Shown in pieces: positions 48,459 to 64,000 of a DNA stretch of 64,000 bases. Source of the DNA: Dehalococcoidia bacterium (GTDB lineage: Bacteria > Chloroflexota > Dehalococcoidia > Lucifugimonadales > G963668185); NCBI GenBank assembly GCA_965249225.1, contig CBDFLT010000007.1, positions 88,894 through 152,893 on the forward strand, read 5' to 3'. The notes under the pieces are model-generated. The model saw only the letters and a list, made by a program, of their open reading frames with translations. It made no database searches and was not told the DNA's origin. Position 1 is the first letter of the stretch. Each line of letters opens with the position of its first letter. The position numbers and the translations under genes were made by a program.

Positions 48459-48475
48459 ACGTCGGGCGTACCGTC

Positions 48476-49270
48476 CTACGCGCTCAGTTCGGCGCTGGCG
48501 GCGTGAGCCCAATCATAGCCCTTCTCCTCCACCTCACGGGCCAGCTCAGGGCCGCCCGACCTGATGATCCGTCCATCCACCAAAACGTGCACGTAGTCGG
48601 GGGTCAGATAGTTGAGGATACGCTGGTAGTGGGTCACCAGGATCATGGCCCTGGAAGGGCCCCGCAGCTGGTTTACGGCATGGGCCACCGTCTTGAGCGC
48701 GTCGACGTCCAGGCCCGAATCGGTCTCGTCCAGTATGGCGAGTTTCGGGTCGAGTATGGCCAGTTGAAGTATCTCGCTGCGCTTCTTCTCGCCACCGGAG
48801 AACCCTTCGTTCACCGATCGCTTCATCAGCTCTGGAGAGATATCGACCAGCTTAATCTTCTCCTTGTACAGCTTGTCGAAATCGCGGACGCTCAACTCCT
48901 CTAGGCCGCGAGCGGCGCGGACCGCATCAACCGCGGACTTGAGGAACTGCCGGTTGCGGACTCCTGGGAGCTCGACGGGATACTGAAAGGCGAGGAAAAT
49001 TCCGGCGAGGCCGCGCTGATCCGGAGTCTTTTCCAGCAGAGGCTCGCCCTGGTAGATTACCTCGCCTCCAGTGATCTTGTACTCGGGACGACCTGCAAGC
49101 ACGTTTGCCAGCGTGCTCTTTCCGCTGCCGTTAGGTCCCATGATGGCATGAACCTCACCCATGTTAACGGTGAGGTTCACGCCCTTCAGTATCTCGGTGT
49201 CTCCGATGGAAACGTGCAGGTTGCGCACTTCCAGCATCGTTCCGTTGCGGCTCATGGGAGCTGGGGACAT
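48476..49270 (-). CDS. sufC: Fe-S assembly ATPase SufC
   Basis: MGPNGSGKST, FLAFQYPVE, NEGFSGGEKKR, DETDSGLD, THYQR. Confidence 0.97.
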   Translation of the reverse strand: MSPAPMSRNGTMLEVRNLHVSIGDTEILKGVNLTVNMGEVHAIMGPNGSGKSTLANVLAGRPEYKITGGEVIYQGEPLLEKTPDQRGLAGIFLAFQYPVELPGVRNRQFLKSAVDAVRAARGLEELSVRDFDKLYKEKIKLVDISPELMKRSVNEGFSGGEKKRSEILQLAILDPKLAILDETDSGLDVDALKTVAHAVNQLRGPSRAMILVTHYQRILNYLTPDYVHVLVDGRIIRSGGPELAREVEEKGYDWAHAASAELSA

Positions 49271-50737
49271 CTAGCCGACAGCCCCTTCGAGGCTGACCTT
49301 GAGAAGTTGCGAGGCCTCCATGGCGAACTCGAAGGGTAGCTCCTGGAAGATGCCTTTACAGAACCCGTTGATGATCATGTGGTGGGCGTCCTCTTCCGAG
49401 ATGCCCCGTTGCCTGATATAGAAGAGCTGGTCGTCGCTGACCTTGGACGTAGAGGCCTCATGCTCGATTCGCGCCGTCGGGTTCTTCACCTCAATGTAGG
49501 GGACGGTGTGGGCTCCGCATTTGTCGCCGATGAGCAGCGAGTCGCACTGCGTAAAGTTCTGCGCTCCGGTGGCCGACGGCAGTATTTTGACCTGTCCCCG
49601 GTAGGTGTTATTTCCATGTCCCGCGGAGATGCCCTTGGCCACGATGGTACTCTTGGTGTTCTTGCCAATGTGGGTCATCTTGGTCCCGGTGTCCGCCTGC
49701 TGGTGCCTGTTGACCAGCGCCACCGAGTAGAACTCGCCGGTGGAGTTGTCGCCTTGGAGGATCACGCTGGGGTATTTCCAGGTGATGGCCGAGCCGGTCT
49801 CCACCTGGGTCCATGAGATCTTGGAGTTGTTGCCCACGCACTTGCCGCGCTTGGTAACGAAGTTGAACACCCCGCCATTGCCTTCCTTGTCGCCGGGATA
49901 CCAGTTCTGGAGCGTCGAGTACTTGATCTCAGCGTCCTCCAGTGCAACTAGTTCGACGACCGCCGCGTGGAGCTGGTGGCTTTTTCGCATCGGCGCGGTG
50001 CAGCCCTCCAGGTAGCTGACGTAGCTGCCCTTGTCGGCGATTATGAGGGTGCGCTCGAACTGCCCGGAGTCCTCCTGGTTGATGCGGAAGTACGTCATCA
50101 ACTCCATGGGACAGCGCACACCTGGGGGCACGTAGGCGAAGGACCCGTCACTGAAGACGGCTGAGTTTAGAGTCGCGAAGAAATTGTCGCTGTAGGGCAC
50201 AATCGAGCCCAGGTACTTTTTGATCAGGTCCGGATGGTTCTCGACCGCCTCGCTGAATGAGCAGAAGACGATACCCATTTTGTCCAGCTGTTCCTTGTAG
50301 GTGGTGGCGACGGAGACGCTGTCGAACACGGCGTCCACCGCCACGCCAGCCAGCTTTGCGCGCTCGTGCAGTGGCACGCCCAGCTTGTCGAACGTCGCCA
50401 GGAGCTCGGGGTCCACCTCGTCCAGGCTCTTGGGCCTGTCCTTGCTGGAGATAGGCGAGGCGTAGTAGTAGATGTCCTGGTAGTCGATGGACGGAAATCG
50501 CACCATGGACCACCTGGGCTCCCGGTGCTTCTGCTTGAGCCAGTGCCGGTAGGCCCTGAGGCGCCACTCGAGCATGAACTCGGGCTCATTCTTTTTGGCC
50601 GAGATCAGGCGGACGATGTCCTCGTTCAGGCCCTTGGGGGCCAAGTCCGACTCGATCTCGGTGACGAACCCCCACTTGTAGTCCCGCTCGAGGTCCTCTG
50701 AGGTCGTAGTGCGTGAAATTACCTTTGGAGCAGTCAT
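49271..50737 (-). CDS. sufB: Fe-S assembly protein SufB
   Basis: [49 protein letters not shown]. Confidence 0.97.
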
Positions 50738-50795
50738 AATCCCCGATTTTGTGGGCTGATTTCGCCGATGATTCGGCCAGAATCACTCGGTGATA

Positions 50796-50825
50796 ATTCT
50801 AGCACCCGCCGTTATAGGGGGTCAA
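50796..50825 (-). promoter_or_regulatory. Sigma70-type promoter of the suf operon
   Basis: Minus strand TTGACC-18-TAGAAT with an extended -10 TG. Confidence 0.6.
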
Positions 50826-50977
50826 GCGTTTCCACGCATTTTGACATAAAAAGTGATTAAACCGAATCTCTCCATCTTTTCGTAACCCATGGCCCCTCTT
50901 ACGCGCCGCTAAGAGCTACCTCAGTATTCATCTTCAAGATGGCATTAACAAGCAGCTGGCAACGCAGTCTCGCGGCA

Positions 50978-51880
50978 TTATCCGCTGGGCCCCTCCACGA
51001 GGCACCGGATGACCTGCCTGGCCTCGTCCATATTTCCATCCACCGCGACCTTGACGCTCCCCCGGCCATAGATGGCGGTGGTCTTGCCCATCCGCTCGGG
51101 GTCCTCGGTCTCGACAGCCACCTTTGCTTCCCGATATGACAGCAGCCCCGGACTTATGGCGGCGGCTGCGGCCAGGGGATCGCAGAGGTTGTAGGTGTTG
51201 CGATCGGGGTCGGCCTCGAACCAGTTACTTAGGATCTTACTCGCCAGCCTCCCGCTGTCCGACGAGTCCGAGTACCATGGGGCCTCGGACCTGCTCTCGA
51301 CGGCCTGATTGCACACGTCCAGCCCTATTAACGTGACCGGAACGCCAGACTCGAAAACGACGCGTGCTGCGTGTGGATCGTTATAGGTATTGAACTCGGC
51401 GTGAGGGGTCACGTTGCCGGGAACCGCCAGGGCGCCACCCATTACCACGATCTCCTTTAACCAGTCGGTAACCCGCGGTTCCTGGTTCATCGCCCTTGCC
51501 AGGTTGGTAAGAGGGCCTAGGGCGATCACCGTCAGTCCACCACGAAGAGCCGAGGCCAGGCTGACGATGTGGTCCCAGGCGCGCACCCGAACCGATCGAA
51601 TACGCGGCCGTGGCAGGCGGACGGTAAGACCGCCGGGGCCGTGGTAGTAGTATCCGTAGAGGAACTTGCCTTTCAGGGGCCTCGAAGCCCCTCTGGCCAC
51701 CGGCACTTCCTGGTGACCAAGATACTCCAGCAGGCTTAACGTGTTGCGTGTCGTATGGGTCAGCGATGCATTGCCCCCGACGGTGGTCAGCCCCAATACC
51801 TCGAGCTCGGGGGAGTTCAGGGCCATCATAATAGCCAGGGCGTCGTCTGTGCCTGGATCGGTGTCGATTAGGACCTTCAA
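50978..51880 (-). CDS. Nucleoside hydrolase (IU-NH fold, CD variant)
   Basis: DTDPGTDD Ca-binding motif, GPLTN, AEFN..NDP; LCDP in place of the usual HD. Confidence 0.9.
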   Translation of the reverse strand: MKVLIDTDPGTDDALAIMMALNSPELEVLGLTTVGGNASLTHTTRNTLSLLEYLGHQEVPVARGASRPLKGKFLYGYYYHGPGGLTVRLPRPRIRSVRVRAWDHIVSLASALRGGLTVIALGPLTNLARAMNQEPRVTDWLKEIVVMGGALAVPGNVTPHAEFNTYNDPHAARVVFESGVPVTLIGLDVCNQAVESRSEAPWYSDSSDSGRLASKILSNWFEADPDRNTYNLCDPLAAAAAISPGLLSYREAKVAVETEDPERMGKTTAIYGRGSVKVAVDGNMDEARQVIRCLVEGPSG

Positions 51881-51893
51881 TGTCCCATGTCCG

Positions 51894-52859
51894 CTACACC
51901 GCCGCTAATGCCCGTTTCCGACGCGCAAACGACTCCCATGTGTCGCGAGAGGAGTATCGGAACGTCACACCCAGCTCGCGTCGAATCCTCTCCGTGCTCA
52001 CCGTCCATCGGTAGCGTATGAAGTCCAGACCCGGCGGAGGAGAATCCGACTGTAAGCGGAGAGCCCAGGTAACCCCGGTCACTGCATAGAGCAAAGGCGA
52101 TGGGACCATCAGGCACATGCGGCCCATGATCTTCGTCATTTCGCTCCAGTGGATCTCGCCTTCGCCCGCCAGGTTGTATAGTCCCGGCGTTCGATGGACC
52201 ACACAGTGAGCCATGATGTCCACGAGGTCGTCTTCATGGAGGAGTTGAAGGGGAGGGTCGAACCCTCTGACACCGAGGAGGAGCGGCTTGGAGAAGGCTT
52301 GGGCGATGAAATTATCGGCGTTGGGGCCTAGGACTGGGCACGCCCTCAGGACCGTGGTACTTAGAGAAGGGTTTCGCTCCGCATGGGTGGCTAGGGTTCG
52401 TTCGGTCTCGGCCTTTGCCTCACCGTACTGGAATCCCTTCACTGGCCTCACGGGTGACTCCTCGGTTAGCGTCGGCGGGTTGTCGGGGTGGGCGCCGTAG
52501 ACCGTGGTGCTGCTGAGGTAAAGCACGTGACTCACTGGGCCGTCGGCGCACGCGGCGAATACTCTCTCCGCCGCCTCCACGTTGACGCGGTCGACTGACG
52601 CCCGATCGTGGCTCGGTTTCAGCGCAAACGCCAGATGCACGACCGAGTTGGCGCCGTGGTGGGATAGGAGATCCTCGATCGGCTCGGTAATGTCGTGGCG
52701 CTGGTAGACGACCTTCGGGCCGTATGCCCGCCCAAGGGGGCGGATATCCAGCGCGAGGATATGCTCGACGGCCTCCTCATGTTCGAGGCGTTGGATCAGC
52801 CTCCCTCCGACGTATCCGGCGGCGCCGGTGACGGCGACCCTACGGGGCGCGTCACTCAT
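51894..52859 (-). CDS. Extended SDR / NAD-dependent epimerase-dehydratase (possibly HpnA-like)
   Basis: TGAAGYVG, HLAF, SSTTVYG, YGEAK. Confidence 0.88.
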   Translation of the reverse strand: MSDAPRRVAVTGAAGYVGGRLIQRLEHEEAVEHILALDIRPLGRAYGPKVVYQRHDITEPIEDLLSHHGANSVVHLAFALKPSHDRASVDRVNVEAAERVFAACADGPVSHVLYLSSTTVYGAHPDNPPTLTEESPVRPVKGFQYGEAKAETERTLATHAERNPSLSTTVLRACPVLGPNADNFIAQAFSKPLLLGVRGFDPPLQLLHEDDLVDIMAHCVVHRTPGLYNLAGEGEIHWSEMTKIMGRMCLMVPSPLLYAVTGVTWALRLQSDSPPPGLDFIRYRWTVSTERIRRELGVTFRYSSRDTWESFARRKRALAAV

Positions 52860-53223
52860 CGGCTACCACGTCGGTAAAGTCGAACTTGAGGGTGCCCAGG
52901 CCGGGCACGACGAAGCCCATGCCAACCTTTCGAGGACCCGGCTCCAGGGTGAGGCCGGCGACTCGTATGGTGATCGCCTTGTTCATCGCCAGGGTGAAGG
53001 TGTTCTCTTTGCTCACCTCACTGAAGGGAGTCTCCTTGCCCTCCAGCACGAAGCGGGTGGACTCCAGGGGAATCTCGGTCCCGTCCAGCGTTAGGGGAAG
53101 TACCTCGTAGGCGTAGCCCGACCCCAGGGAGTTTTTTATTTGGAACTCAAACCCTTCGGAGGTGTTTCGCAGGCTCTGTTTTACATACAGCCGCCTTAAT
53201 AGGAATCCGGGCACTGTGACCAC
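52852..53223 (-). CDS. Small beta-rich hypothetical protein
   Basis: 123 aa, VPGFLLRRLYVKQSLRNT..GFEF.IKN.L; overlaps the next gene by 8 nt. Confidence 0.75.
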   Translation of the reverse strand: MVTVPGFLLRRLYVKQSLRNTSEGFEFQIKNSLGSGYAYEVLPLTLDGTEIPLESTRFVLEGKETPFSEVSKENTFTLAMNKAITIRVAGLTLEPGPRKVGMGFVVPGLGTLKFDFTDVVADE

Positions 53224-53274
53224 TATGTTGTGTCTCCTAGCCTTGGCCGGCTTTGTCCCAACCGACGGCGTCCG

Positions 53275-53946
53275 CTATTCACGCCGCTCGGCATCCTGCC
53301 GCATGCGGTAGAGGGATATCTCCGTATCCACGATCTCCTTTGGTAGTGGGTTCACCTTGCCCAGGAGAGACGAGTACACGAAGATCTGGGCCACGCGTTC
53401 CGTGAGCGCACAGACCTCCAGCGCCTCGTTCAAATCGCCGCCAACCCCCACAACGCCATGGTTCCTGATCAGCGCCGCCTTGCGTTCCCCCAGGGCGCGG
53501 CACACGTTGTTCGCCACCTCCTCCGTGCCGGGAAACGCGTACTCGGATACGAGCACCGGGCCGCCTATGCGCACCACCATCTCGTCGATTATAGGCGGTA
53601 TATCCAGCCCGGCTACGGCCGCCACGCTGGCGAACACCGAGTGGGTATGGATTACCGCCTTGACGTCCGGGCGGGCCTTGTATATGCCTGTGTGCAGCAA
53701 TGCCTCTGAGGACGGCACCAGGTCTCCCTCCACGGGCTCGACCTGAAAGTCCGCTACAACGATGTCATCCTCCCGAAGGCCGGAGTATCGTTTCCCCGAA
53801 GGCGTCACCGCCATGAGCTCTCTCTCGTCCGTTGGTTCCAGGCGAACACTGATGTTGCCGCTGGTCCCGGTCACGAGCCCCTGCGCGGTCATCTCCTGTG
53901 CGGCCCGCACCACGTCGCGCTTGGCGGCCTGCCAGCGGCCGGTCAT
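53275..53946 (-). CDS. Class II aldolase, L-fuculose-1-phosphate aldolase (FucA)-like
   Basis: GTSGNIS, TPSG, PSSE, HTHS and NHG metal ligands; start at 53946 or 53979. Confidence 0.9.
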   Translation of the reverse strand: MTGRWQAAKRDVVRAAQEMTAQGLVTGTSGNISVRLEPTDERELMAVTPSGKRYSGLREDDIVVADFQVEPVEGDLVPSSEALLHTGIYKARPDVKAVIHTHSVFASVAAVAGLDIPPIIDEMVVRIGGPVLVSEYAFPGTEEVANNVCRALGERKAALIRNHGVVGVGGDLNEALEVCALTERVAQIFVYSSLLGKVNPLPKEIVDTEISLYRMRQDAERRE

Positions 53947-54001
53947 GACTGGGCGCTCCCCTCTGTGCCGTCGTCCCATAGGGCTGTATGCATGGTGGTC
54001 C

Positions 54002-55507
54002 TCATGTCTCGAACTGGCCGAGCTGCTCGGAAAGCCTACACCAGCGGTTGTAGTGCTCTGAGTACTCAGCTGCCCTCAACGGATCGGGCTTGAAACATTT
54101 GAGCCGGGCACTAGCGATCGCGGCGCTCTCGTCCAGCGACTCGAACTCGCCCAGCGCCGTAGCCGTACAAAGGTATGCGCCTAGGGCGCTAACGTGCGGG
54201 GTATCGGACACCATGATCTCCCGTTCCAGGACATCGACCAAAATTCTCACAAAGGTTTGTGTCCTGGTCATGCCGCCGCCCAGGTGTACACTTGTCGCCT
54301 GAATGCCGGCCAGCTCCTCGATCTGCTTGAGATTGGCTCTCACGGCGAATGCGATGGCTTCCAGAGAGGCCCTGGCCAGGTGGCCGCGTCCGGCGTCGCT
54401 ATAGGTGAGTGGAACGGGGAACAAAAGCCCACCCGTCCGGAGACCGAGCTTGCTCATGTCCATCTGCGCCGGCCCTAAGAAAGCCGAAGCCCCTTCGGAC
54501 CCTGGAGTAACAGCACTTGCCGCGGCGTCCATGGCGTCAAGGACACCTTCTCCTCCACCGTAGAGCGCCTGCGCCAGCCACCGGTACGAGTTTCCGGCGT
54601 CCCCGGCGCTGCTTTCCAGGACCCACTTGTCTGTGGTAAGAAAGCATCCGGCCCAGGTTTTCCCTTCTGGGGACAGGATAGGAGAGTCTGTGACCATCTG
54701 AAGGGGGGTGCTCCACCCGGCGACTACGCCGACCTGGCCTGTCTGTGCTACGCCCATGCCCAGTAGCCCGCACTGCGTATCGGCGCCGCAGGTTACCACC
54801 GGTGTGTCTTGTCGTAGCCCGGAGTCCGCGGCCGCGGACTCCGAAACCCGGCCGGCGATGGCCGTGGCCTCCACGAGGGGCACATCACCGTTTACCGCCA
54901 GCCCCATGTCGTCCAGCAATTCCGTGGCCCAGCGGCGACGATGGATATCGAGCAGCCCAGCCTCTGCGGCGAGGGTGGACTCGCTGGCCACCTCGCCCGT
55001 GAGACGCCATGCCATCCAGTCCGCCAGCGACAGCACGGTGGCTATTCTACCATAGGCCTCAGGCCGGTGGGTTTGGAACCAGCGTAGCTTGGCCGGTGTG
55101 AAGAGGAAGGAGGGTCTGTGACCGGTGGCCTTGTAGACCTTGTCCCCAAACTCCTCGTCGATGGCCGCCCCCTCAAACACTGCTCGGATGTCGAGGTTGG
55201 GGCCGACGTACAACTCCCGCCCCGACCGGTCGAGGAAGGCGACTCCCTGACGCTGGCTTGTGACTCCTATGGCTACGACTTCGTCTGCAGACGCCTTGGC
55301 CTCGCTCAGCGCTGCACGGACGAGACCGCAGAGGTCGGCCCAGAGGGCCTGAGGGTCGAACTCGCGGGATAGGGAAGAGGCGTCTTCGATCGCGGAGTAG
55401 CGCCACTCCCCCAAGCTTGCCCCTGCGATATCGCCCTTCCCGTCGAAGACGAAGCACCGTGGGCTGCTGGTGCCGGCGTCGAGGACCAGGGTATACCCGC
55501 TACCCAT
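54002..55507 (-). CDS. FGGY carbohydrate kinase, LsrK (AI-2 kinase)-like
   Basis: LDAGTSSPR, EWRY, REFD, PNLDIRA, GADTQCG, GGG; N-terminal motifs recall LsrK (EWRH, MEFD, ANVDARA). Confidence 0.85.
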   Translation of the reverse strand: MGSGYTLVLDAGTSSPRCFVFDGKGDIAGASLGEWRYSAIEDASSLSREFDPQALWADLCGLVRAALSEAKASADEVVAIGVTSQRQGVAFLDRSGRELYVGPNLDIRAVFEGAAIDEEFGDKVYKATGHRPSFLFTPAKLRWFQTHRPEAYGRIATVLSLADWMAWRLTGEVASESTLAAEAGLLDIHRRRWATELLDDMGLAVNGDVPLVEATAIAGRVSESAAADSGLRQDTPVVTCGADTQCGLLGMGVAQTGQVGVVAGWSTPLQMVTDSPILSPEGKTWAGCFLTTDKWVLESSAGDAGNSYRWLAQALYGGGEGVLDAMDAAASAVTPGSEGASAFLGPAQMDMSKLGLRTGGLLFPVPLTYSDAGRGHLARASLEAIAFAVRANLKQIEELAGIQATSVHLGGGMTRTQTFVRILVDVLEREIMVSDTPHVSALGAYLCTATALGEFESLDESAAIASARLKCFKPDPLRAAEYSEHYNRWCRLSEQLGQFET

Positions 55508-56489
55508 GGCGCTTCCATGCTTCGGGGTTGACCAGGTTTTCGGGGCGCTGGCCCGCGAGGAACCGCTGGATGTCGGCGGCCATCATTTGTGAGTGGCGCT
55601 CGATCGTCTCGGCGGTGGCGCCGCCCAGGTGAGGCGTCAGCACCACGTTGTCAAGCGACAGAAGTGGGTTGCCGGGCGAGATGGGGTGGGAGTCGAACAC
55701 GTCCAGGGCCGCCCCGGCGATTCGTTTCTGATGCAGCGCCTCGACGAGGGCGTCCTGGTCGACAAGCGCTGCGTCGGACGTGTTTACCAGGCAGGCCGTG
55801 TGCTTGAGGAGCGCCAGACGGCGTGCGTCCAGGATACCTTCCGTGTCCTCGCTCAGCGGGGCGTGTATGGTCACGAAGTCGGACCTCGATAGAAGCTCGT
55901 CCAGACCCGTCATCTCCACGTCCTCCGGAGCGTCGGCAACGAACGGATCGTAGGCGATCGTAGTCATGCCGATGGTGCTGGCGAGGGTGGCGGTCTTTCG
56001 CCCAATGGCGCCTAGGCCGATGATGCCCAGTGTCCGCCCAGCCAGTTCGACGCCGCGCATAGAGATGTAGGGCTCAGCAGGATTGATCCAGCGTTCCCCT
56101 ATCACATATCGATGCGCCTCTGGAATTCGCCTTGCCAGCGACAGCATGAGCCCCAATACGTGCTCGGCCACGGCCTGGGCATTTCTGCCCGGAGTGTTCA
56201 CCACCAGGACGCCATGCCGGGTTGCGTTCTCCACGTCGACGTGGCTGGTTGTGCTGCGGCAGACGCCTACGAACCGGAGTTGGTCCGCCCGGTCGAATAC
56301 CTCTTGAAAGACGAAGTCGGACTCGATGACCAGAATTGAGATGGACTCATCCCGAAGCCGTGTGCCCAACTCTTCGGGGTCCCAAAGGCGCCCGGTTTCC
56401 AGCCAGCTCTCGTAAGTGACCGCCATGGACTTGCGCAGTTCCGCAAGCTGGCGATCAGAAAATGGGGCCAGGATAAGAGAGAGCGCCAT
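55500..56489 (-). CDS. D-2-hydroxyacid-dehydrogenase-fold oxidoreductase with altered catalytic residues
   Basis: NTPGRNA.AVAEH, GIIGLGAIG, YDP, TPHLGG; start ATG 56489 overlaps the hpnE stop (TGATG). Confidence 0.88.
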   Translation of the reverse strand: MALSLILAPFSDRQLAELRKSMAVTYESWLETGRLWDPEELGTRLRDESISILVIESDFVFQEVFDRADQLRFVGVCRSTTSHVDVENATRHGVLVVNTPGRNAQAVAEHVLGLMLSLARRIPEAHRYVIGERWINPAEPYISMRGVELAGRTLGIIGLGAIGRKTATLASTIGMTTIAYDPFVADAPEDVEMTGLDELLSRSDFVTIHAPLSEDTEGILDARRLALLKHTACLVNTSDAALVDQDALVEALHQKRIAGAALDVFDSHPISPGNPLLSLDNVVLTPHLGGATAETIERHSQMMAADIQRFLAGQRPENLVNPEAWKRHG

Positions 56490-57868
56490 CAGCTTGTGGA
56501 TGCGGAGGCCACCTCGTCGGCAGCCAGCACCCCGCTTCTGACCGCTCCCTCCATCGTAGATGGCCAGCCGGTGTCGGTCCACTCTCCGGCCAGAAACAGG
56601 TTCTGTATCGGGGTCTTCTGCGGCAATCGATGCCTTGCGGCGCCGGGCACCGAGCGGAAGGTGGCCTTGGGCTGTTTGACGACCAGGAACCGCTCGATTT
56701 TCGCCTCTCGGGCCTTTGGGAACAGGGCCTCCATTTCCCTCGCGAACATCTCCCTCAACTCGTCTTTGGGCTTGTCCACGAACTGCCACGCCCCGCTCAG
56801 CGAGATGCAGCAGTATTGGCCTGGGTAGCCAGTGAGTTGCTGGATGGCGCTCTTGTTGAACACCCACTGCACCGGGCTATCCAGAAACCCCACGAAGTCC
56901 TGGTCCATTACCGGCCTATCGTACCACAGGTGTACGCCCACGATGGGTGAGGAGGTTAGCCCTCTCGCCCCGGCGAAGAACGGCTCATCTGCGACTTCAG
57001 CAGGGAGGACCTGTAGCAGGACGTCGTAGGGCAGGGCGCTGACGTAGACATCCGCCTGCAGCACGTGACCATCCGAGAGCTCTACGCCCGTGACCTCGCC
57101 GTCCCGGACCTGGACCGACCGCACCGCCTTACCCAGAACGAACTTGCTTCCGCCCTTCTCCAGCATGGACTTGGCCGGGTCTCCGGCCAATGACGTGAGT
57201 CCCACCTTCGAGAAGCCCATGGCCGCGTTGGACGGCTTTTTCAGCAGCACCTCCTGGAATACCATCAGCGCCATGTCGGCGCTCACGTCTCGTACGTCAT
57301 CGTTAAGGGTGGGGAGGATTATCAGGTTCCACAGGTTGTCTATGGCTCGCTCGGTCTGGTGATGTCGCTTGAGCCACTGGTACGCCGTCTGTCCGTCGAG
57401 CTCCTGGGCGTGTTTGCGCCTGGAGGTCAGCTTCATGCTGAGAAGGCCGTAGATGGCCAGGAGCTTGTCTATAAGGCCGAGGTGTGGATATCGGATAAAC
57501 GACGGCAGCAGGTGCAGCGGTCCGAGAAGGGGAGTGCTGCTGAGAACGCCCGTCTTCCCGTTCCGGACGATTTCGGCGTGCAGCCTGTCCTGAAGGTACG
57601 CCTTGTCCTGGGCCCCCGCCCATTTGAGGAAGTCGATGTAGTAGGTGAAGCAACCCGTGAACACGTGCTGTCCGTTGTCGACCTCCCGCTGGACTTCACT
57701 GTCCATGAAGGAAAATGCGCGGCCGCCGAGGAAGGGGCGCATCTCCACCAGCGTGACGTGGTAACCGTGCTCAAGCAGGCGATGGGCCGCCGACAGTCCT
57801 GAAAGTCCGCCTCCTAGGACGGCTACGGTCCCAGTAGGGGGACCGCTCGGATCATGCTCTGCGTCCAT
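56489..57868 (-). CDS. hpnE: Hydroxysqualene dehydroxylase HpnE
   Basis: GGGLSGLSAA, GGRAFSF, DNGQH, SSPIV.VHLWYDR, AGEWTDTGWPSTMEGAVRSG. Confidence 0.92.
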   Translation of the reverse strand: MDAEHDPSGPPTGTVAVLGGGLSGLSAAHRLLEHGYHVTLVEMRPFLGGRAFSFMDSEVQREVDNGQHVFTGCFTYYIDFLKWAGAQDKAYLQDRLHAEIVRNGKTGVLSSTPLLGPLHLLPSFIRYPHLGLIDKLLAIYGLLSMKLTSRRKHAQELDGQTAYQWLKRHHQTERAIDNLWNLIILPTLNDDVRDVSADMALMVFQEVLLKKPSNAAMGFSKVGLTSLAGDPAKSMLEKGGSKFVLGKAVRSVQVRDGEVTGVELSDGHVLQADVYVSALPYDVLLQVLPAEVADEPFFAGARGLTSSPIVGVHLWYDRPVMDQDFVGFLDSPVQWVFNKSAIQQLTGYPGQYCCISLSGAWQFVDKPKDELREMFAREMEALFPKAREAKIERFLVVKQPKATFRSVPGAARHRLPQKTPIQNLFLAGEWTDTGWPSTMEGAVRSGVLAADEVASASTS

Positions 57869-58704
57869 AACCTAGCCGTAAGAAGTAGCTTTGCTCTCTT
57901 GCTCAAGCCGATGCGCCGCTGGAACACGTCGAACCCCGAGGCCTCTATGCGATCCAACAAGGCGCTGTACACCCCGTGGAGCACGGCGGGGCAGGCCCGT
58001 GATCGGGGCGAAAGAAGGGGCAGAAGACGCCGCCCACTGGCGAAGTATCTTCGTGCCCGGTCCACCTGAAACCTCATGAGACGCAGGAAGTTGTCGTTTA
58101 CCACACCGTTGAGCAGATCGGCTTCCGAGTAGCCGAATGAGGCCATCTCGTCCAGCGGCAGGTAGATTCTGCCTCGCTCCGCGTCCTCTTTGACGTCGCG
58201 CAGGATATTGGTCAGCTGCATGGCCAGGCCCAAGTCGACTGCGTACTCCCTGGCCTTTGGGTCTTCGTACTCGAACACTTCGATGCAGATGAGGCCCACC
58301 ACGGAGGCCACCTTGTAGCAGTAACCCCTCAGCTCGTCGAAGTTCTGGAACCGGGTCTGAAGGAGGTCCATCTCCACTCCTTCGATCACCTCTTCGAAAT
58401 AGTGAGTGGGGATGTGGAAGGTGCGGACGGTGTCCTGGAGAGCTAAAAACACGGGGTCTTTGGCCTTGCCGCCGTTCACCATCTCCTTCAGCTGCCGGCG
58501 GGTCTGAGCGAAGAGAGCCCTCTTTTCCTCAAGGGAGTTGTTCTCGTCGGAGATGTCGTCGCAGAGCCGGCAGAAGGCATAGGTGGCGTAGATGGCGCGG
58601 CGCTTTCGAGAGGGCAGTGTACGGAAGGCGTAGTAGAAGTTCTTCGCGTACTCTTTGGCTACCCGCTGACAGTGATCGTAGGCCGGCTGCAGTTCGCTTC
58701 CCAT
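57823..58704 (-). CDS. hpnD: Presqualene diphosphate synthase HpnD
   Basis: AKNFYYAF..LP, YAFCR.CDD..D, YCY.VAS.VG, QLTNILRDV.ED. Confidence 0.9.
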   Translation of the reverse strand: MGSELQPAYDHCQRVAKEYAKNFYYAFRTLPSRKRRAIYATYAFCRLCDDISDENNSLEEKRALFAQTRRQLKEMVNGGKAKDPVFLALQDTVRTFHIPTHYFEEVIEGVEMDLLQTRFQNFDELRGYCYKVASVVGLICIEVFEYEDPKAREYAVDLGLAMQLTNILRDVKEDAERGRIYLPLDEMASFGYSEADLLNGVVNDNFLRLMRFQVDRARRYFASGRRLLPLLSPRSRACPAVLHGVYSALLDRIEASGFDVFQRRIGLSKRAKLLLTARLWTQSMIRAVPLLGP

Positions 58705-58742
58705 GGAGAGCCCGGCAGAATGGCGGTTCACTGTGTTGGTGG

Positions 58743-59636
58743 TCAGACTCTGCCCAGGAGCTTCAGCTTCAGCGCCGTAAGCAGCATGAGGCGGATTCTG
58801 AACGCCCTGGACAGGGTTGGCCGCTTGCTCAACACATCGTACCTCTGGCGTTCGATGGCGTCCAAGACCTTCATCCCCCCCCGGCTGAATAGGGCTACGT
58901 CCAGCTTCAAGCGTCCCTCCAGAGTACCCACCAGCTCAAGCCCTCGATGGAAGAGGTCGCGGGTCCTGTCCACTTCGAAGGCCATCATCCGGCGGAAGGC
59001 GTCATCCGCGACGCCTCGACTCAGTTCGTCCTCAGAGTAGCCGAATCGCTCCATGTCCTCCTGGGGAATGTAAATCCGGCCCATCGCATAGTCCCTTGCC
59101 ACGTCCTGCCAGAAGTTGGCTAGCTGAAGGGCCGTGCAGGTATAGTCGGAGAGGTGCTGACGCTCAGTGTCCCGGTACCCGAACACGTACAGGACCAGGT
59201 GTCCTACAGGGTTCGCCGAGTGCTGGCAGTACCAGCCTAGGTCTTCGTAGGTTGGGAAACGCTTTACCCGCTGGTCCATGCGGTTGGCCTCGATCAACTT
59301 CAGGAAAGGCTCCCTAGGTATATCGTGGGCCTGGATGGTCTGCTGGAGGGCGATCATATATGGGTGATGGGGCGTCCCCTCGTAGCAGCGGAGGAGGTCC
59401 TGCTCCCACAGGTCAAGCGCGTGTAACTTGTCGCCTCTGTGCTCGTCGCCGAGGTCGTCCACGCCCCTGCAAAAGGCGTAAATGGCGTACATGTGATCGC
59501 GGGCCAAGCGGGGGAGAAACCAGGAGACGACCGTGAAATTCTCGTAGTGGGTTCCGGCCAGGTCCTGGCACCGGGCGTAGGCCTCTTTTACCGTTGCAGC
59601 GGGTCCAGAGGCGGCTCCGGCCAGGAGGGACTCCAT
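58743..59636 (-). CDS. hpnC: Hydroxysqualene synthase HpnC
   Basis: HYENFTV.S, YAFCR.VDDLGDE, SANPVG.LVL, CTALQLANFWQDV. Confidence 0.92.
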   Translation of the reverse strand: MESLLAGAASGPAATVKEAYARCQDLAGTHYENFTVVSWFLPRLARDHMYAIYAFCRGVDDLGDEHRGDKLHALDLWEQDLLRCYEGTPHHPYMIALQQTIQAHDIPREPFLKLIEANRMDQRVKRFPTYEDLGWYCQHSANPVGHLVLYVFGYRDTERQHLSDYTCTALQLANFWQDVARDYAMGRIYIPQEDMERFGYSEDELSRGVADDAFRRMMAFEVDRTRDLFHRGLELVGTLEGRLKLDVALFSRGGMKVLDAIERQRYDVLSKRPTLSRAFRIRLMLLTALKLKLLGRV

Positions 59637-59643
59637 GGGAGAG

Positions 59644-60123
59644 TCACACCCCTAATATCTGCACTAGAATCTCACGCTCGACGCCATTGCCCGCCTTCTG
59701 GAAGTCCAACTCTACCATAAAGATCCGCTGCCACGTGCCCAGCGCAAGGGCGCCGTCGATGATGGGGATGTACTCGCTGCTGCCCAAGGTGAGATGCTGG
59801 CAGTGAGAGTGTCCGTTAGGGCACTCGTCTTCGTGCATGTGGACAGTTCGTACGGAGAAGTCGTTGTGCCGGTATTGGGCGGACCGTGGCGAGACACGCT
59901 CAAGGAAGTTGGCCATATCCTCCAGAAGAAGAGGCTCATTCTCCTGGATGGTGATGGCCGCAGTGGTGTGTCTTGAGAAAGCCACAGCTAGGCCGTTGCG
60001 AATCCGGGAGTCCTGCACGCACTCAGTGATGCGATCGGTGATGTCGACGAATTCCGGGGCCGCCGCGGCTGCCACGTGCAGCGTAAATAGGCTGGTGTTA
60101 ACGGAAGCCTCGCTTACTCGCAT
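59644..60123 (-). CDS. YjbQ/UPF0047-family protein
   Basis: DIT, HTTAAI.IQENEP, Y.H, NGHSH, LGTWQ.IF.VELD. Confidence 0.9.
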   Translation of the reverse strand: MRVSEASVNTSLFTLHVAAAAAPEFVDITDRITECVQDSRIRNGLAVAFSRHTTAAITIQENEPLLLEDMANFLERVSPRSAQYRHNDFSVRTVHMHEDECPNGHSHCQHLTLGSSEYIPIIDGALALGTWQRIFMVELDFQKAGNGVEREILVQILGV

Positions 60124-60232
60124 TAAACGACCTCTCTATTCACTGGTGTATCTGGCGAAATGAGCCAGACGCACCCAAGGTGGAACATTAACATACCGAC
60201 GAGAATTAATTCAATCGTCTTCGCTTGCTGTT

Positions 60233-62293
60233 TCATTCGGACATAGCCTGTTTTTGCTTGGCTGTCGACCTCTGGCGCTGGTTCCCCACAGCCTCGCCAT
60301 TCAGAGACGTTCTGTACCTTCCCAGAGCCGTCAGGGGCCAGTAGTTCCTGTACATGTGGTAATTAATCATGAAACCCGCGCGTAACTCGGCTCCCTGGAA
60401 CTCGGGTTCATCGGGGGAATAGAACTTGTCGGGCCGCTGTCCAATGCCGTACCCCGGAAATCCCGTTCCAGTAAAATACGGCTCATCCCATGAGCCGTCC
60501 TCCTGCTGTGTTCGTATCAGGTACCCGATGCCCTGACGTGTGGCGGGGTTGCTGCTCTCCCCCGCGGCAAGCATGGCCATCAAGGCCCAGGCTGTCTGCG
60601 ATGCGGTACTGGGGCCTCGACCCGCGTGGGCACGGTCCACGTATGAGATGCAGCTTTCTCCCCACCCGCCATCGGGGTTTTGGTGTTCCACCACCCAACT
60701 GACAGCCCGGCGGACGTACTCGGCGTTCATGTCCATGCCTACAGACTGGAGGGCAGGCAATACCGCACCGGTTCCGTAGATATAGTTGACGCCCCAACGC
60801 CCGAACCACGGCCCGTCCTCTTCCTGCTCAGACAGGATGTACTCGAGCGCCCTCTTCGCGGCCGGATGGCTTGCCGGGTAGCCGAGCTGGGCCATCATCT
60901 CGAGGATGTGGGCCGTGACGTCGACGCTAGGCGGGTCGATGGTCTCACCGAAGTCTGAGAACGGGATTTTCGCCAGGGGGATCTTGTCATTGTCCTTGTC
61001 GAAGGCGCCCCATCCTCCGTTGGCGCTTTGCATACCCAGAAGCCACTGGGTGCCCCGCTCGATGGACTCTTGCAGTTCGGTTGCGTTGGGCACTTCGGTC
61101 TTGTCGAGGGCCATAATGACCTCTGACGAGTCGTCCAGGTCAGGGTAGAGGTCATTTTCAAACTCGAAGGACCAGCCACCGGGCGGCAAGTCCTTGACCT
61201 TCACCTGCCAGTCACCGCCTTGTAGCACCTGCTCTTTGAGCAGCCACTGGGCCGCGTTAACCAAGGCAGGATGATCAGCTGGTAAGCCTGAGTCCGCCAG
61301 CCCGATCATTGCGAGGCCCGTATCCCATACCGGCGACAGACACGCCTGCACTCGGAGGGTGTCTCGCTCCTCTATGGAGAAGGTCTCAAACCCGGCGAGC
61401 CCCTTCTGGATAACCGGGTGGTTCAAGGGATAGCCCAGGGTGTGGAAGGCCATCAATGAGTACACCCATGGCGGTTGTATACCCCCCCAGCTACCGTCGG
61501 CCTCTTGGTGCTCTAAGATCCACTGCTCCGCCCGATTGATGGCTAGGGACCGCGCCGGTTTCCATGGCAGCCTCTCTAGTTGCCTCAGCACAGCGTCGCC
61601 CGTATAGAAGAACGTCTCCCAGCCTACAAGCCGGCGGGGGCGTTCTATCGAGTAATCTACTTCTGAGCGCGGCACCGGATAGAGCTCATCGATATAGGCT
61701 GACTCAGGTATGGAACGAACGGGTTTTCGGTCCAGTATGATAAGCAGAGGCACAATGGTCGCCCTAGCCCAACTGGCGAAGTCGTAGATGGTAACGGGGA
61801 ACCAGTTGGGAAGCAGCATGATCTCGGGTGGCATCACCGGGATGCCCTTCCAGTCCCACTGGTCGAACAGCGCCAGCCATATCCTGGTAAAAATACGGGT
61901 GTTGGGAACGCCTCCCTTGGAGAGGATGAACTCTCTCGCCTTCTTCATGGACGGCTCATCGGCGGAGGTCCCGGCGAGTTTCAGGGCGAAGTAGCACTCT
62001 GTGGAGGTGCTAAGATCGCCCTCGGACCCGTAGAACTGTCCCCACGTTCCATCGTCCCTCTGACGGCTTCGTATGTGGTTCGCCAGCTTCCGCCACCGTT
62101 CCTCATCTCCGATGCCAAGGAAGTGGGTCAGCATGAGAAACTCGGCTTCCATAGTCGCGTTGGACTCCAGCTCTCCCCACCAGTAGCCCTCCGGATGTTG
62201 AACGCTCAGCAGGTAGCCTTGGGCGTGCTTGATTGTCGCGTCCAGCTCCGTCAGTTCCTCTTGGGTTATTTCCTTGTCTCTAATATCGAGCAT
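60233..62293 (-). CDS. shc: Squalene-hopene cyclase
   Basis: YPDLDD (DXDD) motif, SPVWDT, GRWGVNYIYGT, repeated QxxDGxW motifs, FTGTGFP, Y..YWPL.ALGRY. Confidence 0.96.
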   Translation of the reverse strand: MLDIRDKEITQEELTELDATIKHAQGYLLSVQHPEGYWWGELESNATMEAEFLMLTHFLGIGDEERWRKLANHIRSRQRDDGTWGQFYGSEGDLSTSTECYFALKLAGTSADEPSMKKAREFILSKGGVPNTRIFTRIWLALFDQWDWKGIPVMPPEIMLLPNWFPVTIYDFASWARATIVPLLIILDRKPVRSIPESAYIDELYPVPRSEVDYSIERPRRLVGWETFFYTGDAVLRQLERLPWKPARSLAINRAEQWILEHQEADGSWGGIQPPWVYSLMAFHTLGYPLNHPVIQKGLAGFETFSIEERDTLRVQACLSPVWDTGLAMIGLADSGLPADHPALVNAAQWLLKEQVLQGGDWQVKVKDLPPGGWSFEFENDLYPDLDDSSEVIMALDKTEVPNATELQESIERGTQWLLGMQSANGGWGAFDKDNDKIPLAKIPFSDFGETIDPPSVDVTAHILEMMAQLGYPASHPAAKRALEYILSEQEEDGPWFGRWGVNYIYGTGAVLPALQSVGMDMNAEYVRRAVSWVVEHQNPDGGWGESCISYVDRAHAGRGPSTASQTAWALMAMLAAGESSNPATRQGIGYLIRTQQEDGSWDEPYFTGTGFPGYGIGQRPDKFYSPDEPEFQGAELRAGFMINYHMYRNYWPLTALGRYRTSLNGEAVGNQRQRSTAKQKQAMSE

Positions 62294-62331
62294 AGTATCT
62301 GGGGATAGTACTCCGACGAGTTTGGCGGTCT

Positions 62332-63093
62332 CTACAAGGCGGACACCGCAGACCTAAGGAACCTCGACAGCGAAGCGCTGGCGACATTGGCCTGGCGCCT
62401 GAGGTGAAGTAGCCTTGGGGTCTCCGCGGGCCTGGTGATAATGTACCGGACCGCACGCTGCCAGCGGTCAGGACCGTTGCCGTTGATTTCCTGTCCAACG
62501 AAGGCTGGCAGGTCCTGGTCCACGGTATCCAGGACCGAGCGCACTACCAGCGTGGGTATGTGGTGTTGTGTTGCGGCCTGGTTCACCCAGTAGCTCTCCA
62601 TATCGATGATGCTGACCGGGAAGGTTTCGCCGATCCAGGCCTTCATGGAGCTGTTTGGCACGAACATGGACACCGAAAGACAGCCATCTTGAGCGTATCC
62701 GCCGTCAAAGTCATCGATATTGGTAACCACCCTGTCCAGGAGGTCGCTGTCAATGGTCCGCATCGGGTGGGTCTGGTCACGCTCCCAGAGGGCCGGTGGG
62801 CCCTCGATGGACATCAGTGCATTGCATAGGACTAGGCTTCCTGCCTCCATGTTGCGCCGCACCGCCCCCGCGAATCCCGCTGAGATGATGAGTTCGGGCT
62901 TGAACTTCTCGACCGTCTGCTCAGTTGCCGCCTCGGCGCGCTTCCTCCCCGCACCGCCTTCGGCTACGACTACATTTGGCACAGAAGCGGACTGGTAGTA
63001 GCTGATCGCTCCTTCCCGGGTCGTTCTCTTGAATTTTCCCTCCGATAGGTAGTCTTTAAGCTCCTCTCTCAAAGCCGTGACTATCGCTAACAT
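62332..63093 (-). CDS. hpnG: Hopanoid-associated nucleosidase/phosphorylase (HpnG-like)
   Basis: PNP/MTAN fold (TALREE, IISAGFAGA, IDMES, VRSVLD) located between hpnH and shc. Confidence 0.75.
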   Translation of the reverse strand: MLAIVTALREELKDYLSEGKFKRTTREGAISYYQSASVPNVVVAEGGAGRKRAEAATEQTVEKFKPELIISAGFAGAVRRNMEAGSLVLCNALMSIEGPPALWERDQTHPMRTIDSDLLDRVVTNIDDFDGGYAQDGCLSVSMFVPNSSMKAWIGETFPVSIIDMESYWVNQAATQHHIPTLVVRSVLDTVDQDLPAFVGQEINGNGPDRWQRAVRYIITRPAETPRLLHLRRQANVASASLSRFLRSAVSAL

Positions 63094-63138
63094 CGTGAAC
63101 GTCCGGTCCTGTAAAGATGAGGGCAGGCCATCACTTCC

Positions 63139-64000
63139 TCAGGATGCTCCTATGCCGCTGTTCTGGATCGCCCCTTCTCTGATCATCTTTATTGCGTCTC
63201 GCGGATTGGAGAGCGCCTCGAAAAGGGACGCCGATTCAAAGCCGCAGTGCATCATGCAGCTGGCGCAGCGGGGGTCTTTACCCACGCCGTACTTATCCCA
63301 CAGTTCGTCAGTGAACAGGTCGTCGACGTTCTGGGTGTGCCTGTCGCCCAGCAGGTAACAGGGCTCTCTCCAGCCCATCACCGTGTAGGTGGGGTTTGAA
63401 TAGGCCGTACACTGGTACTCCCGGTTGCCACGTAGAAAGTCGAGGTAAAGGGGGTTGTTGTAGAAACGTAGCTTCCTCTTGGGGTCCAGGACGTTCTTAA
63501 AGATCTTGCGCGCCTTTTGCCTGGACAGGAACAACTCCTGCTTGGGTACCGACTCGAACTTGTAACCGGGGGACACCATGCAGCCTTCTACTCCCATGTC
63601 GGTGACCATGGTGAACATCTTGATCAAGTCGTCCTCGTCGCAGCCGTTGAAGACCGTCGTATTGGTGGTTATGCGGTAGCCCTTCTCCAGGGCCGACTCG
63701 ATTCCCCTCATCGCGATCTTGAAGACGCCTTTCCTGTACACGGATCGGTCGTGTGCCTCCTCCATGCCGTCCAAGTGGATCACGAAGCAGAAGTACTTGG
63801 ACGGTGGGATCTTTTTCATCACGCGCTCCATCAGGATGGCGTTTGTGCACATGAATACGAACTTCTTCTTAGCGGTGATGCCGTTGACGATCTCGTGGAT
63901 CTGCTCGTGGATCGTGGGTTCGCCTCCGGCGATGGAGACGATGGGCGCACCCGATTCCTCCACCGCGGCGAGGCACTGCTCAACGGACAGTCTGCGGTTG
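63139..64000 (-). CDS. hpnH: Adenosylhopane synthase HpnH (radical SAM); 5' end lies beyond the window
   Basis: RRLSVEQCLAAVEESGAPIVSIAGGEP, CTNA, HLDG, SPGY, PCYL, YGVG.DPRCASCMMHCGFE. Confidence 0.92.
   Translation of the reverse strand, partial: NRRLSVEQCLAAVEESGAPIVSIAGGEPTIHEQIHEIVNGITAKKKFVFMCTNAILMERVMKKIPPSKYFCFVIHLDGMEEAHDRSVYRKGVFKIAMRGIESALEKGYRITTNTTVFNGCDEDDLIKMFTMVTDMGVEGCMVSPGYKFESVPKQELFLSRQKARKIFKNVLDPKRKLRFYNNPLYLDFLRGNREYQCTAYSNPTYTVMGWREPCYLLGDRHTQNVDDLFTDELWDKYGVGKDPRCASCMMHCGFESASLFEALSNPRDAIKMIREGAIQNSGIGAS

Follow-up and report, generated by a model that had tools for sequence, protein, structure and literature searches.

We analysed a stretch of 64,000 nucleotides (nt) from a Dehalococcoidia bacterium (contig CBDFLT010000007.1, positions 88,894 to 152,893), referred to below as the window; it corresponds to G000:C7:88894-152893, where G000 is the window's own assembly (2.04 Mb, 86% complete). 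Positions 50978-64000 carry 13 genes in one orientation, all on the minus strand, in which genes of hopanoid synthesis (hpn) are followed by a module of six genes, M1 to M6, that code for enzymes of sugar and nucleoside type and one small protein. Judging by gene layout and its conservation, M1-M6 are probably the conserved tail of a SAR202 hopanoid operon and co-transcribed with the hpn genes. As to function, we tentatively propose that they form an isomerase-free route, similar to the dihydroxyacetone phosphate (DHAP) shunt, from a nucleoside-derived pentose to DHAP.

Gene families were assigned by comparing the 13 window proteins with Pfam and NCBIfam profiles, using curated equivalog cut-offs. 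The TGA codon of hpnE (56489..57868), encoding hydroxysqualene dehydroxylase (TIGR03467, 390.5 bits against a cut-off of 283), overlaps the ATG of M1 in the sequence TGATG at 56487-56491. M1 (55500..56489) encodes a 329-amino-acid (aa) protein of the 2-hydroxyacid dehydrogenase family (2-Hacid_dh; PF02826, 189.6 bits, and PF00389); a 455-aa open reading frame (ORF) starting at GTG 56867 was rejected as it overlaps hpnE, the real start being ATG 56489. An 8-nt overlap (55500-55507) joins M1 to M2 (54002..55507), an LsrK/XylB-like FGGY carbohydrate kinase (PF00370, PF02782). M3 (53275..53979), a member of the Zn-type class II aldolase/epimerase family resembling FucA and DrdA (PF00596, 166.6 bits), follows after 22 nt, or after 55 nt if it begins at ATG 53946, the start used by several orthologues. 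After another 51 nt comes M4 (52852..53223), a 123-aa beta-sandwich protein that matches PF25653 'HMG-CoA_red_N' with 67 bits and PF19906 (CGDB) with 26 bits, just under the cut-off. It overlaps by 8 nt (52852-52859) with M5 (51894..52859), an extended short-chain dehydrogenase/reductase (SDR) of the epimerase/dehydratase family (PF01370, 78 bits). M6 (50978..51880), an inosine-uridine (IU)-type nucleoside hydrolase with a TTG start (PF01156, 265.8 bits against 34.2), lies 13 nt behind M5. The original prediction, made from the sequence alone, had described 13 co-oriented genes of these families, and both the ORF layout and the profile searches bore it out; the TGATG junction and the two 8-nt overlaps that it listed are exact, and the other gaps, given there as below 60 nt, measure 13-55 nt.

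Upstream of hpnE, two genes of the SQS_PSY family are of the HpnC/HpnD type, these two not being told apart: one at 57823..58731 (PF00494, 280 bits), which is the closest match to the single squalene synthase (SQS) gene of loci without hpnE, and one at 58743..59636 (PF00494, 235 bits). They are preceded by a gene for an UPF0047/YjbQ-family protein (59644..60123; PF01894, TIGR00149), whose position is kept in many loci, and by shc, encoding squalene-hopene cyclase (60233..62293; PF13243, 502.9 bits; PF13249, 451.4 bits). Next are an HpnG-like nucleosidase/phosphorylase of the PNP_UDP_1 family (62332..63093; PF01048), which scores 89 bits with the HpnG model TIGR03468, below the cut-off of 187, and 73 bits with the model of methylthioadenosine (MTA)/S-adenosylhomocysteine (SAH) nucleosidase, and hpnH (63139..64000; TIGR03470, 354.7 bits against a cut-off of 225), encoding the radical-SAM adenosyl-hopene transferase. 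The 5' part of hpnH extends beyond the window end, and the complete gene is readable in G000:C7. There, outside the window, a polyprenyl synthetase gene lies directly upstream of hpnH and the strand switches beyond it; the unit therefore consists of polyprenyl synthetase, hpnH, hpnG, shc, yjbQ, SQS, SQS, hpnE and M1-M6. The run ends with a 240-nt spacer (50738..50977) that precedes sufB; sufB, sufC and a second SufBD-family gene (together sufBCD) occupy 47109-50737, downstream of the module. A consensus scan, which is weak evidence, revealed no strong minus-strand promoter-like site within the 13-gene run. The region's only strong site on this strand, at 50825-50796 ahead of sufB, is a consensus match alone, and promoter-like sites in the region are no more numerous than in shuffled sequences, that is, at chance level. 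An Rfam scan of the window and of the operon's upstream region matched no family.

The association of the module with hpn genes was surveyed in 41 genomes of the same order, with orthologues of the kinase defined by at least 38% identity. An M2 orthologue is present in 20 of them, G000 and the fragmented G014 being among these 20. In 18 kinase-orthologue loci, inspected as 20-kb stretches, the module stands directly behind hpn genes in all but one (17/18), the exception being G007. A search with an M4 alignment against 185,579 species genomes retrieved 80 loci, from Dehalococcoidia, SAR202 or Chloroflexota metagenome-assembled genomes, with one from Anaerolineae. By tblastn, M3 is present in 79/80 of these loci, M5 in 78/80, M2 in 71/80, M1 in 70/80 and M6 in 64/80; the complete set M1-M5 was found in 66/80 and M1-M6 in 53/80. 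An SQS or hpnE gene is co-oriented upstream of M1 in 58 of the 66 loci with at least 1.5 kb of upstream sequence, and the distance from its stop codon to the M1 start is 50 nt or less in 46 of 57 measured loci, the genes overlapping in 8. Some genomes belong to both the 18-locus and the 66-locus set, and genomes that are related do not count as independent samples. It had been predicted that the six genes are linked to the hpn run, a claim that was to fall if relatives lacked the linkage; the survey (17/18 and 58/66 loci) found the linkage in place.

Linkage of the module to isoprenoid genes survives rearrangements. The order yjbQ-hpnCDE-M1..M5, with shc elsewhere, is found in L013 and L113; in G025, a genome with this order, hpnH-hpnG-shc is 0.8 Mb distant. 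In six loci (L041, L044, L046, L047, L050 and L063) a divergent gene of the MTA/SAH-nucleosidase/HpnG clade (PNP_UDP_1) stands directly before M1-M6, the gap to M1 being 5 nt in L041, where it was measured. A polyprenyl synthetase gene precedes this nucleosidase in L041, which was annotated with Pfam, and L044 has the same ORF layout. In the four genomes of this group that were searched, hpnH and shc are located elsewhere, and in the two hpnH/shc clusters that were fetched a better HpnG lies between hpnH and shc. Reduced forms of the module also occur, hpnE-M3-M6-suf in G016 and hpnD-hpnE-M3-M5 in G028, and one genome from another order of the class has the arrangement shc ... ispG ... hpnD-hpnE-M1-M2.

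The module also co-occurs with hopanoid synthesis genes. shc was detected in 23 of the 41 relatives and hpnH in 22, the shc set minus one genome in which the gene would fall off the contig edge. An M2 orthologue is present in 19/23 shc-positive genomes and in 1/18 shc-negative ones. This single genome, G007 (92% complete), keeps M1-M5, has no shc or hpnH match and carries extra genes of the DHDPS and PIG-L families and a major facilitator superfamily (MFS) transporter gene after the module. Two further genomes with no shc match, G023 and G027, keep an M3-like gene. The mean genome size, calculated from rounded sizes, is ca. 2.7 Mb for shc-positive and ca. 1.8 Mb for shc-negative genomes. HpnJ, HpnN and HpnA gave no matches above cut-off in G000.

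Two side observations concern the hopanoid genes themselves. The HpnH proteins fall into two score classes with TIGR03470, ca. 510-531 bits in G016, G025, G037 and G038 and ca. 389-443 bits in the others, and in three of the four high-scoring genomes the module is reduced or absent. In many SAR202 loci yjbQ keeps its place between shc and the genes of squalene synthesis, and in G027 it is found between the polyprenyl synthetase gene and the M3-like aldolase gene (L119:5721-7069); yjbQ may be functionally part of the module.

The module enzymes belong to recognizable families, and all score below every curated equivalog cut-off. M1 aligns over its full length with phosphoglycerate dehydrogenase and glyoxylate reductase structures (PDB 1wwk, 5aov and 8wpo). 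The comparison covered the window's M1 and 16 orthologues, 17 sequences in all. The catalytic Arg in the 'RG' motif of the family is replaced in 17/17 sequences, by varying residues, and the catalytic Glu is changed to His in 15/17; the catalytic His, the GxGxxG motif and the following Asp are retained in 17/17. For comparison, Arg, Glu and His are all conserved in 122 of the 139 database representatives for which the three positions could be aligned; those without the Arg are mostly the nearest relatives of M1. M1 has the Rossmann NAD domain of D-isomer-specific 2-hydroxyacid dehydrogenases (2HADH) and lacks their complete Arg-Glu-His triad. Since Arg and Glu are replaced, the canonical chemistry of the SAR202 M1 should be altered or lost.

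M2 can be assigned to the FGGY family only: it scores 237.3 bits with the LsrK model (cut-off 528) and 208.5 bits with XylB (cut-off 380), and its closest PDB match is LsrK (5ya0, 188 bits). The closest structures to M3 are, about equally, FucA 4c24 and the 5-deoxyribulose-1-P aldolase 6btd, the latter with 104 bits. Motifs GN.S, TP, PSSE, H.H and HG are invariant in 17/17 M3 sequences aligned to FucA 4c24; we take them to hold the three Zn-binding His residues, the catalytic Glu and the phosphate pocket of FucA. At the position of H-Y in 4c24 all sequences have D-E; the second catalytic residue of E. coli FucA is Tyr113. M3 thus lacks this Tyr and, with 144.7 bits for the best FucA model against a cut-off of 264, is not a FucA equivalog. 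Nor does it qualify as AraD (TIGR00760, 84.9 bits against 389; PRK06557, 164 bits against 251). Its top NCBIfam match is the subfamily named L-ribulose-5-phosphate 4-epimerase (164 bits, below the cut-off of 251), and the C-terminal Y/F is not invariant. A tblastn search of G000 found no class II aldolase besides M3, no FGGY kinase besides M2 and no IU hydrolase besides M6.

M4 is predicted to have the fold of a C-glycoside deglycosidase beta subunit. Its AlphaFold2 model (pLDDT 87.3) matched only such subunits (DgpB/DfgB/CarB) in a Foldseek search, with TM 0.63-0.72, E values of 3e-7 to ca. 2e-5 and a probability of 1.00. The likeness to C-glycoside deglycosidases (PDB 7bvr, 7dre, 7dnm and 8qvc) is one of beta-sandwich fold with a weak sequence match; unlike these enzymes, the module contains no DgpC-type alpha subunit, and the neighbours of M4 are an aldolase and an SDR. 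The search for this TIM-barrel subunit covered the 13 operon genes and not the rest of the genome. Two singleton database proteins fuse M4 to M5; since M4 and M5 overlap by 8 nt, these fusions could be frameshift artefacts. An M3-M4 fusion in L123 was rejected, the 347-aa ORF being an out-of-frame read-through that contains the M4 domain only. Protein atlas look-ups of M4 and M5 returned family names only. M5 is an extended SDR with a GxxGxxG motif and an intact S...YxxxK set, G12, G15, S117, Y145 and K149 being invariant in 14 sequences; its identity with HpnA was rejected (TIGR03466, 31.4 bits against a cut-off of 367.65). M6 is a typical IU hydrolase: its Ca-binding motif DxDxxxDD reads DTDPGTDD from residue 6, the closest PDB matches are plant NRH (4kpo) and RihA, and the cut-offs of RihA, RihB, RihC and UriH are not reached. 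M6 also retains the GN.TP.AE.N motif, whose Asn and Glu presumably bind the ribose 5'-OH in IU hydrolases.

The first three enzymes of the module also occur as one polypeptide. In a sample of 301 Chloroflexota genomes, M2 orthologues were found in only two genomes besides G000. One of these is G278, a 99% complete genome from another class without shc; it encodes a 1309-aa protein (L127:6756-10682) with an FGGY kinase domain at residues 7-452, 2-Hacid_dh at 530-852, an SCP2 sterol-transfer domain at 954-1043 and Aldolase_II at 1104-1278. A database search retrieved 943 matches at E <= 1e-3 among 7999 scored candidates, and at least 120 proteins of the G278 architecture are listed (P0002-P0121), from sources that include Bellilinea, Anaerolineaceae and Anaerolineales. 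The names of the listed proteins carry no function beyond that of their parts, e.g. 'NAD(P)-dependent oxidoreductase' or 'autoinducer 2 kinase'. Versions of ca. 1475 aa have two SCP2 domains; kinase-dehydrogenase fusions of 888 aa and dehydrogenase-aldolase fusions of 560 and 576 aa without SCP2 also exist. The fused domains are 31-40% identical to M2, M1 and M3. In the fused dehydrogenase domains the catalytic Arg and Glu are intact, and the CR..N[IV]D and NTPGRNA motifs are common with M1; M5, which is not part of the fusions, may have taken over a redox step. Compared with the Anaerolineae-type fusions, the SAR202 M1-M3 represent the same three enzyme families, but the SAR202 genes are separate, whereas the fusions unite them in a single chain that includes one or two SCP2 domains and has no SDR, M4 or hydrolase. 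Among 61 genomes sampled around G278 the full fusion is present in 8 and squalene-hopene cyclase in none. In G278 and G351 a SorC/LsrR-type sugar-phosphate regulator gene and a divergent MFS transporter gene stand beside the fused gene; in six loci no neighbours were conserved beyond ABC ATPases, with an ABC exporter pair in two others. Kinase, dehydrogenase and aldolase thus form one functional unit. Since the three-enzyme fusion occurs in cyclase-free genomes, the single pathway that they share is not bound to hopanoid synthesis as such. The frequency of SCP2 domains points tentatively to a hydrophobic ligand.

In the route that we tentatively prefer, a nucleosidase, either M6 or, in some genomes, the MTA/SAH-nucleosidase-type paralogue before M1, would free the sugar. 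M5, perhaps with the DgpB-like M4, and/or M1 would then convert the aldose via a polyol to a 2-ketose, a redox step that would replace the isomerase of known routes. M2 would phosphorylate the terminal CH2OH, and M3 would cleave the product into DHAP and a short aldehyde. The preferred substrate would be 5-deoxyribose derived from 5'-deoxyadenosine, which radical-SAM enzymes such as the HpnH of the operon release as a by-product, with ordinary ribose as the second choice. Because the fused proteins have the order kinase-dehydrogenase-aldolase, phosphorylation may precede oxidation. Salvage of this kind was the first of three alternatives offered originally, and it remains the best chemical fit; the order of its steps needs refining, and M1 lacks the catalytic Arg and Glu.

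The DHAP shunt, or 5-deoxyribose salvage (PMC6079011), is carried out by MtnP or MtnN, MtnK/DrdK, MtnA/DrdI and Ald2/DrdA. The module resembles it in combining a nucleoside-cleaving enzyme, a kinase and a FucA-like class II aldolase that gives DHAP and an aldehyde, and the 104-bit structural match of M3 (6btd) is DrdA. It differs in that its kinase is of the FGGY and not the MtnK/DrdK type, in having two NAD(P) enzymes and a DgpB-like protein, in its position in a hopanoid operon, and in having no MtnA/DrdI isomerase, the genes mtnA and mtnP being adjacent to each other ca. 100 kb away on the same contig of G000. A literature search that did not extend to supplementary files found no publication describing the module or the fusion family.

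Besides the tight junctions, the conserved linkage, the fusions and the FucA-like motifs of M3, two further observations favour the route to DHAP. A nucleoside-cleaving gene accompanies the module, M6 in 64/80 loci and a PNP_UDP_1-type gene before M1 in six, and M3, as the only class II aldolase of G000 with mtnP-mtnA elsewhere, fits the role of DHAP-shunt aldolase. Across the order, mtnA is present in 30/41 relatives and a class II aldolase in 28/41; G010, G021 and G032 have mtnA without an aldolase match. No RuBisCO-like protein, as in the MTA-isoprenoid shunt, was found in G000.

Several points weigh against this route. MtnP and MtnA are already present in the genome for 5'-deoxyadenosine and MTA. 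All bacteria run radical-SAM enzymes; the module, with M2 in only 20/41 genomes and tracking shc, is therefore not explained by a general salvage of 5'-deoxyadenosine. The motif residues of M6, by their presumed role in IU hydrolases, would favour ordinary ribonucleosides over 5'-deoxy ones. Without catalytic Arg and Glu, the redox role of M1 is doubtful, and all module enzymes score below the equivalog cut-offs. The SCP2 domains of the fusions and the DgpB-like M4 have no role in a small-sugar route. Two further points concern the link to hopanoids. The sufBCD genes are also syntenic, in 28/80 M4 loci, so that gene order conserved within this lineage does not prove that functions are shared, and shc and the module may have been lost together simply through genome reduction.

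Several side observations concern the mtn genes of these genomes. In G007 a frame of ca. 690 aa with a class II aldolase domain (G007:C27:3073-4801) adjoins mtnA, and similar long frames occur in G008, G011, G017, G022, G029, G037 and G039; the long frame may be the DHAP-shunt aldolase of those genomes. An IS5-family transposase gene (334 bits; L117:12064-13014, G000:C7:41064-42014) lies ca. 3 kb from mtnA-mtnP-kinase-ahcY. In G001 (G001:C1:2757234-2758234) mtnA is in two pieces with in-frame stops (one TGA, one TAG), and may be a broken gene.

A second reading, the third alternative of the original prediction and one that we consider doubtful, takes as the substrate the ribose-derived C5 side chain that HpnH and HpnG make on the hopanoid. 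M5, possibly with M4, would convert ribosylhopane to bacteriohopanetetrol (BHT), M2 would phosphorylate the terminal C35 hydroxyl, M1 or M5 would oxidise C34, and M3 would release DHAP, leaving a C32 hopanoid aldehyde. The specific division of labour in which M5 and M4 are the ribosylhopane reductase and M2, M1 and M3 trim BHT to the C32 aldehyde and DHAP is unlikely. According to PMC12583986, the enzyme for the conversion of ribosylhopane to BHT is not yet established, and the vacancy for such a reductase counts in favour of this reading. Chemically, ribosylhopane is a 5-substituted 5-deoxyribose, and a 1,2,3,4-tetrol should suit a kinase, a dehydrogenase and a DHAP aldolase. The genomic context speaks for the side chain as well: the module is inside the hopanoid operon with its linkage conserved, it co-occurs with shc and hpnH (19/23 against 1/18 genomes), and, with no HpnJ, HpnN or HpnA over cut-off in G000, it supplies the operon's only extra genes. 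So do one or two lipid-binding SCP2 domains between dehydrogenase and aldolase in the fusions, and the M4 fold, which is that of the beta subunit of enzymes cutting a sugar-aglycone C-C bond next to a bulky aglycone.

Other evidence speaks against side-chain processing. The full fusion occurs in 8/61 genomes around G278, yet squalene-hopene cyclase in 0/61, and some dehydrogenase-aldolase and kinase-dehydrogenase fusions have no SCP2. Module genes are retained in three relatives without a shc match, M1-M5 in G007 and M3-like genes in G023 and G027. To our knowledge, only soluble substrates are on record for the FGGY, 2HADH, class II aldolase and IU-hydrolase families. Adenine removal is already done by HpnG, and the trimming of a cell's own product to C32 needs a rationale. 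The module resembles described hpn clusters in that hpnC/D/E, shc, hpnG and hpnH are clustered, but M1-M6 belong to none of the hpn families (hpnA-hpnR) listed in Table 1 of PMC12324291; to the extent of that table, the original remark that the block is not part of described hpn clusters holds.

The module might instead serve catabolism of an ordinary sugar, polyol or ribonucleoside without any tie to hopanoids, its gene order being inherited from a SAR202 ancestor and its co-transcription positional; we regard this as equally doubtful. It is favoured by the regulator and divergent MFS transporter beside the G278 and G351 fusions and by the module of G007, which has an MFS transporter behind it and additional DHDPS-family and PIG-L genes in a genome where shc and hpnH gave no match. 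The resemblance of M6 to a standard ribonucleoside hydrolase, the generally conservative gene order apparent from the sufBCD synteny downstream, and the genome-size confound also agree with it. However, the SAR202 module itself contains no transporter or regulator, the stop of hpnE/SQS overlaps the start of M1 or lies within 50 nt of it in 46/57 loci, and after independent rearrangements the module still adjoins an isoprenoid gene, be it squalene synthase, hpnE or polyprenyl synthetase.

Known sugar pathways offer partial parallels. L-fucose and L-rhamnose are processed by FucK/FucA and RhaB/RhaD, or with the fused aldolase-dehydrogenase RhaEW. The module shares with these routes an FGGY kinase and a Zn class II aldolase, and aldolase-dehydrogenase fusion is a known theme there. 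Unlike them, it lacks a FucI/RhaA isomerase, none of the FucK and FucA cut-offs is reached by M2 or M3, and the fused dehydrogenase of Chloroflexota is a 2HADH and not, as in RhaEW, an SDR. The Lsr system of autoinducer 2 is similar in that LsrK is both the best model and the best structure for M2 and in that a SorC/LsrR-type regulator stands beside the G278 fusion; it differs in that M2 reaches 237 bits against a cut-off of 528, LsrF, LsrG and LsrACDB are missing and the aldolase is of class II.

Lastly, the module could supply 1-deoxy-D-xylulose 5-phosphate (DXP) to the methylerythritol phosphate (MEP) pathway. M2 would phosphorylate a 1-deoxy-pentulose, derived from 5-deoxyribose by C1 reduction and C4 oxidation or by reduction of a diketone similar to 4,5-dihydroxy-2,3-pentanedione, and M3 would act as an AraD-type 4-epimerase converting 1-deoxy-L-ribulose 5-phosphate to DXP. 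By our own derivation the stereochemistry works on paper. The nearest relatives of M2, LsrK and XylB, phosphorylate 1-deoxy-pentose-type substrates, the name of the sub-threshold top NCBIfam match of M3 (164 bits against 251) agrees, and some hopanoid clusters, e.g. those of Streptomyces, carry extra dxs and ispG. A DXP source is indeed missing in this order: dxr is present in 40/41 genomes (in G000 at G000:C6:15353-16462), HMG-CoA reductase in 0/41, and canonical dxs, scoring over the curated cut-off, in 10/41, with dxs missing in the other 31, single-contig G008 and G032 included, with or without the module. Sub-threshold dxs matches resemble split transketolase or pyruvate-dehydrogenase-type subunits. 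The distribution of dxs is, however, not complementary to that of M2: dxs is present in 9/20 kinase-bearing genomes against 1/21 without kinase, 20 of the 21 kinase-less genomes thus being without dxs as well, so that the module is no substitute for it. Moreover, the PSSE motif of M3 holds a Glu as in FucA, and a C-terminal Tyr is not conserved in M3, where AraD uses Asp and Tyr; the flux of a by-product could hardly feed bulk isoprenoid synthesis. The bypass to the MEP pathway that was the second alternative of the original prediction is therefore not supported by gene distribution and is highly improbable. The MEP gene ispF, which had been noted in the window, is there as predicted (PF02542, 210 bits), at 29951-30409 (G000:C7:118844-119302), on the strand of the module and ca. 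20 kb away from it. The presence of dxr without a canonical dxs in most SAR202 relatives is a side puzzle.

SAR202 bacteria rank with the most abundant heterotrophs of the deep ocean, and no bacterial lipid biomarkers are used more than hopanoids. Under the salvage reading, the module would represent a DHAP shunt of a new kind that works without an isomerase. If side-chain processing is true, it would be the first route by which enzymes turn C35 bacteriohopanepolyols into the C32 hopanols and hopanoic acids that are found in sediments; FGGY kinases and class II aldolases would gain their first lipid substrate, and the SCP2-fused Anaerolineae relatives would treat polyol lipids that they do not make themselves likewise. 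The analysis also exposes a large uncharacterised enzyme family, the kinase-dehydrogenase-(SCP2)-aldolase fusions. The six-gene block, tied to squalene-synthesis genes in dozens of species, offers a testable set of genes for the step from ribosylhopane to BHT.

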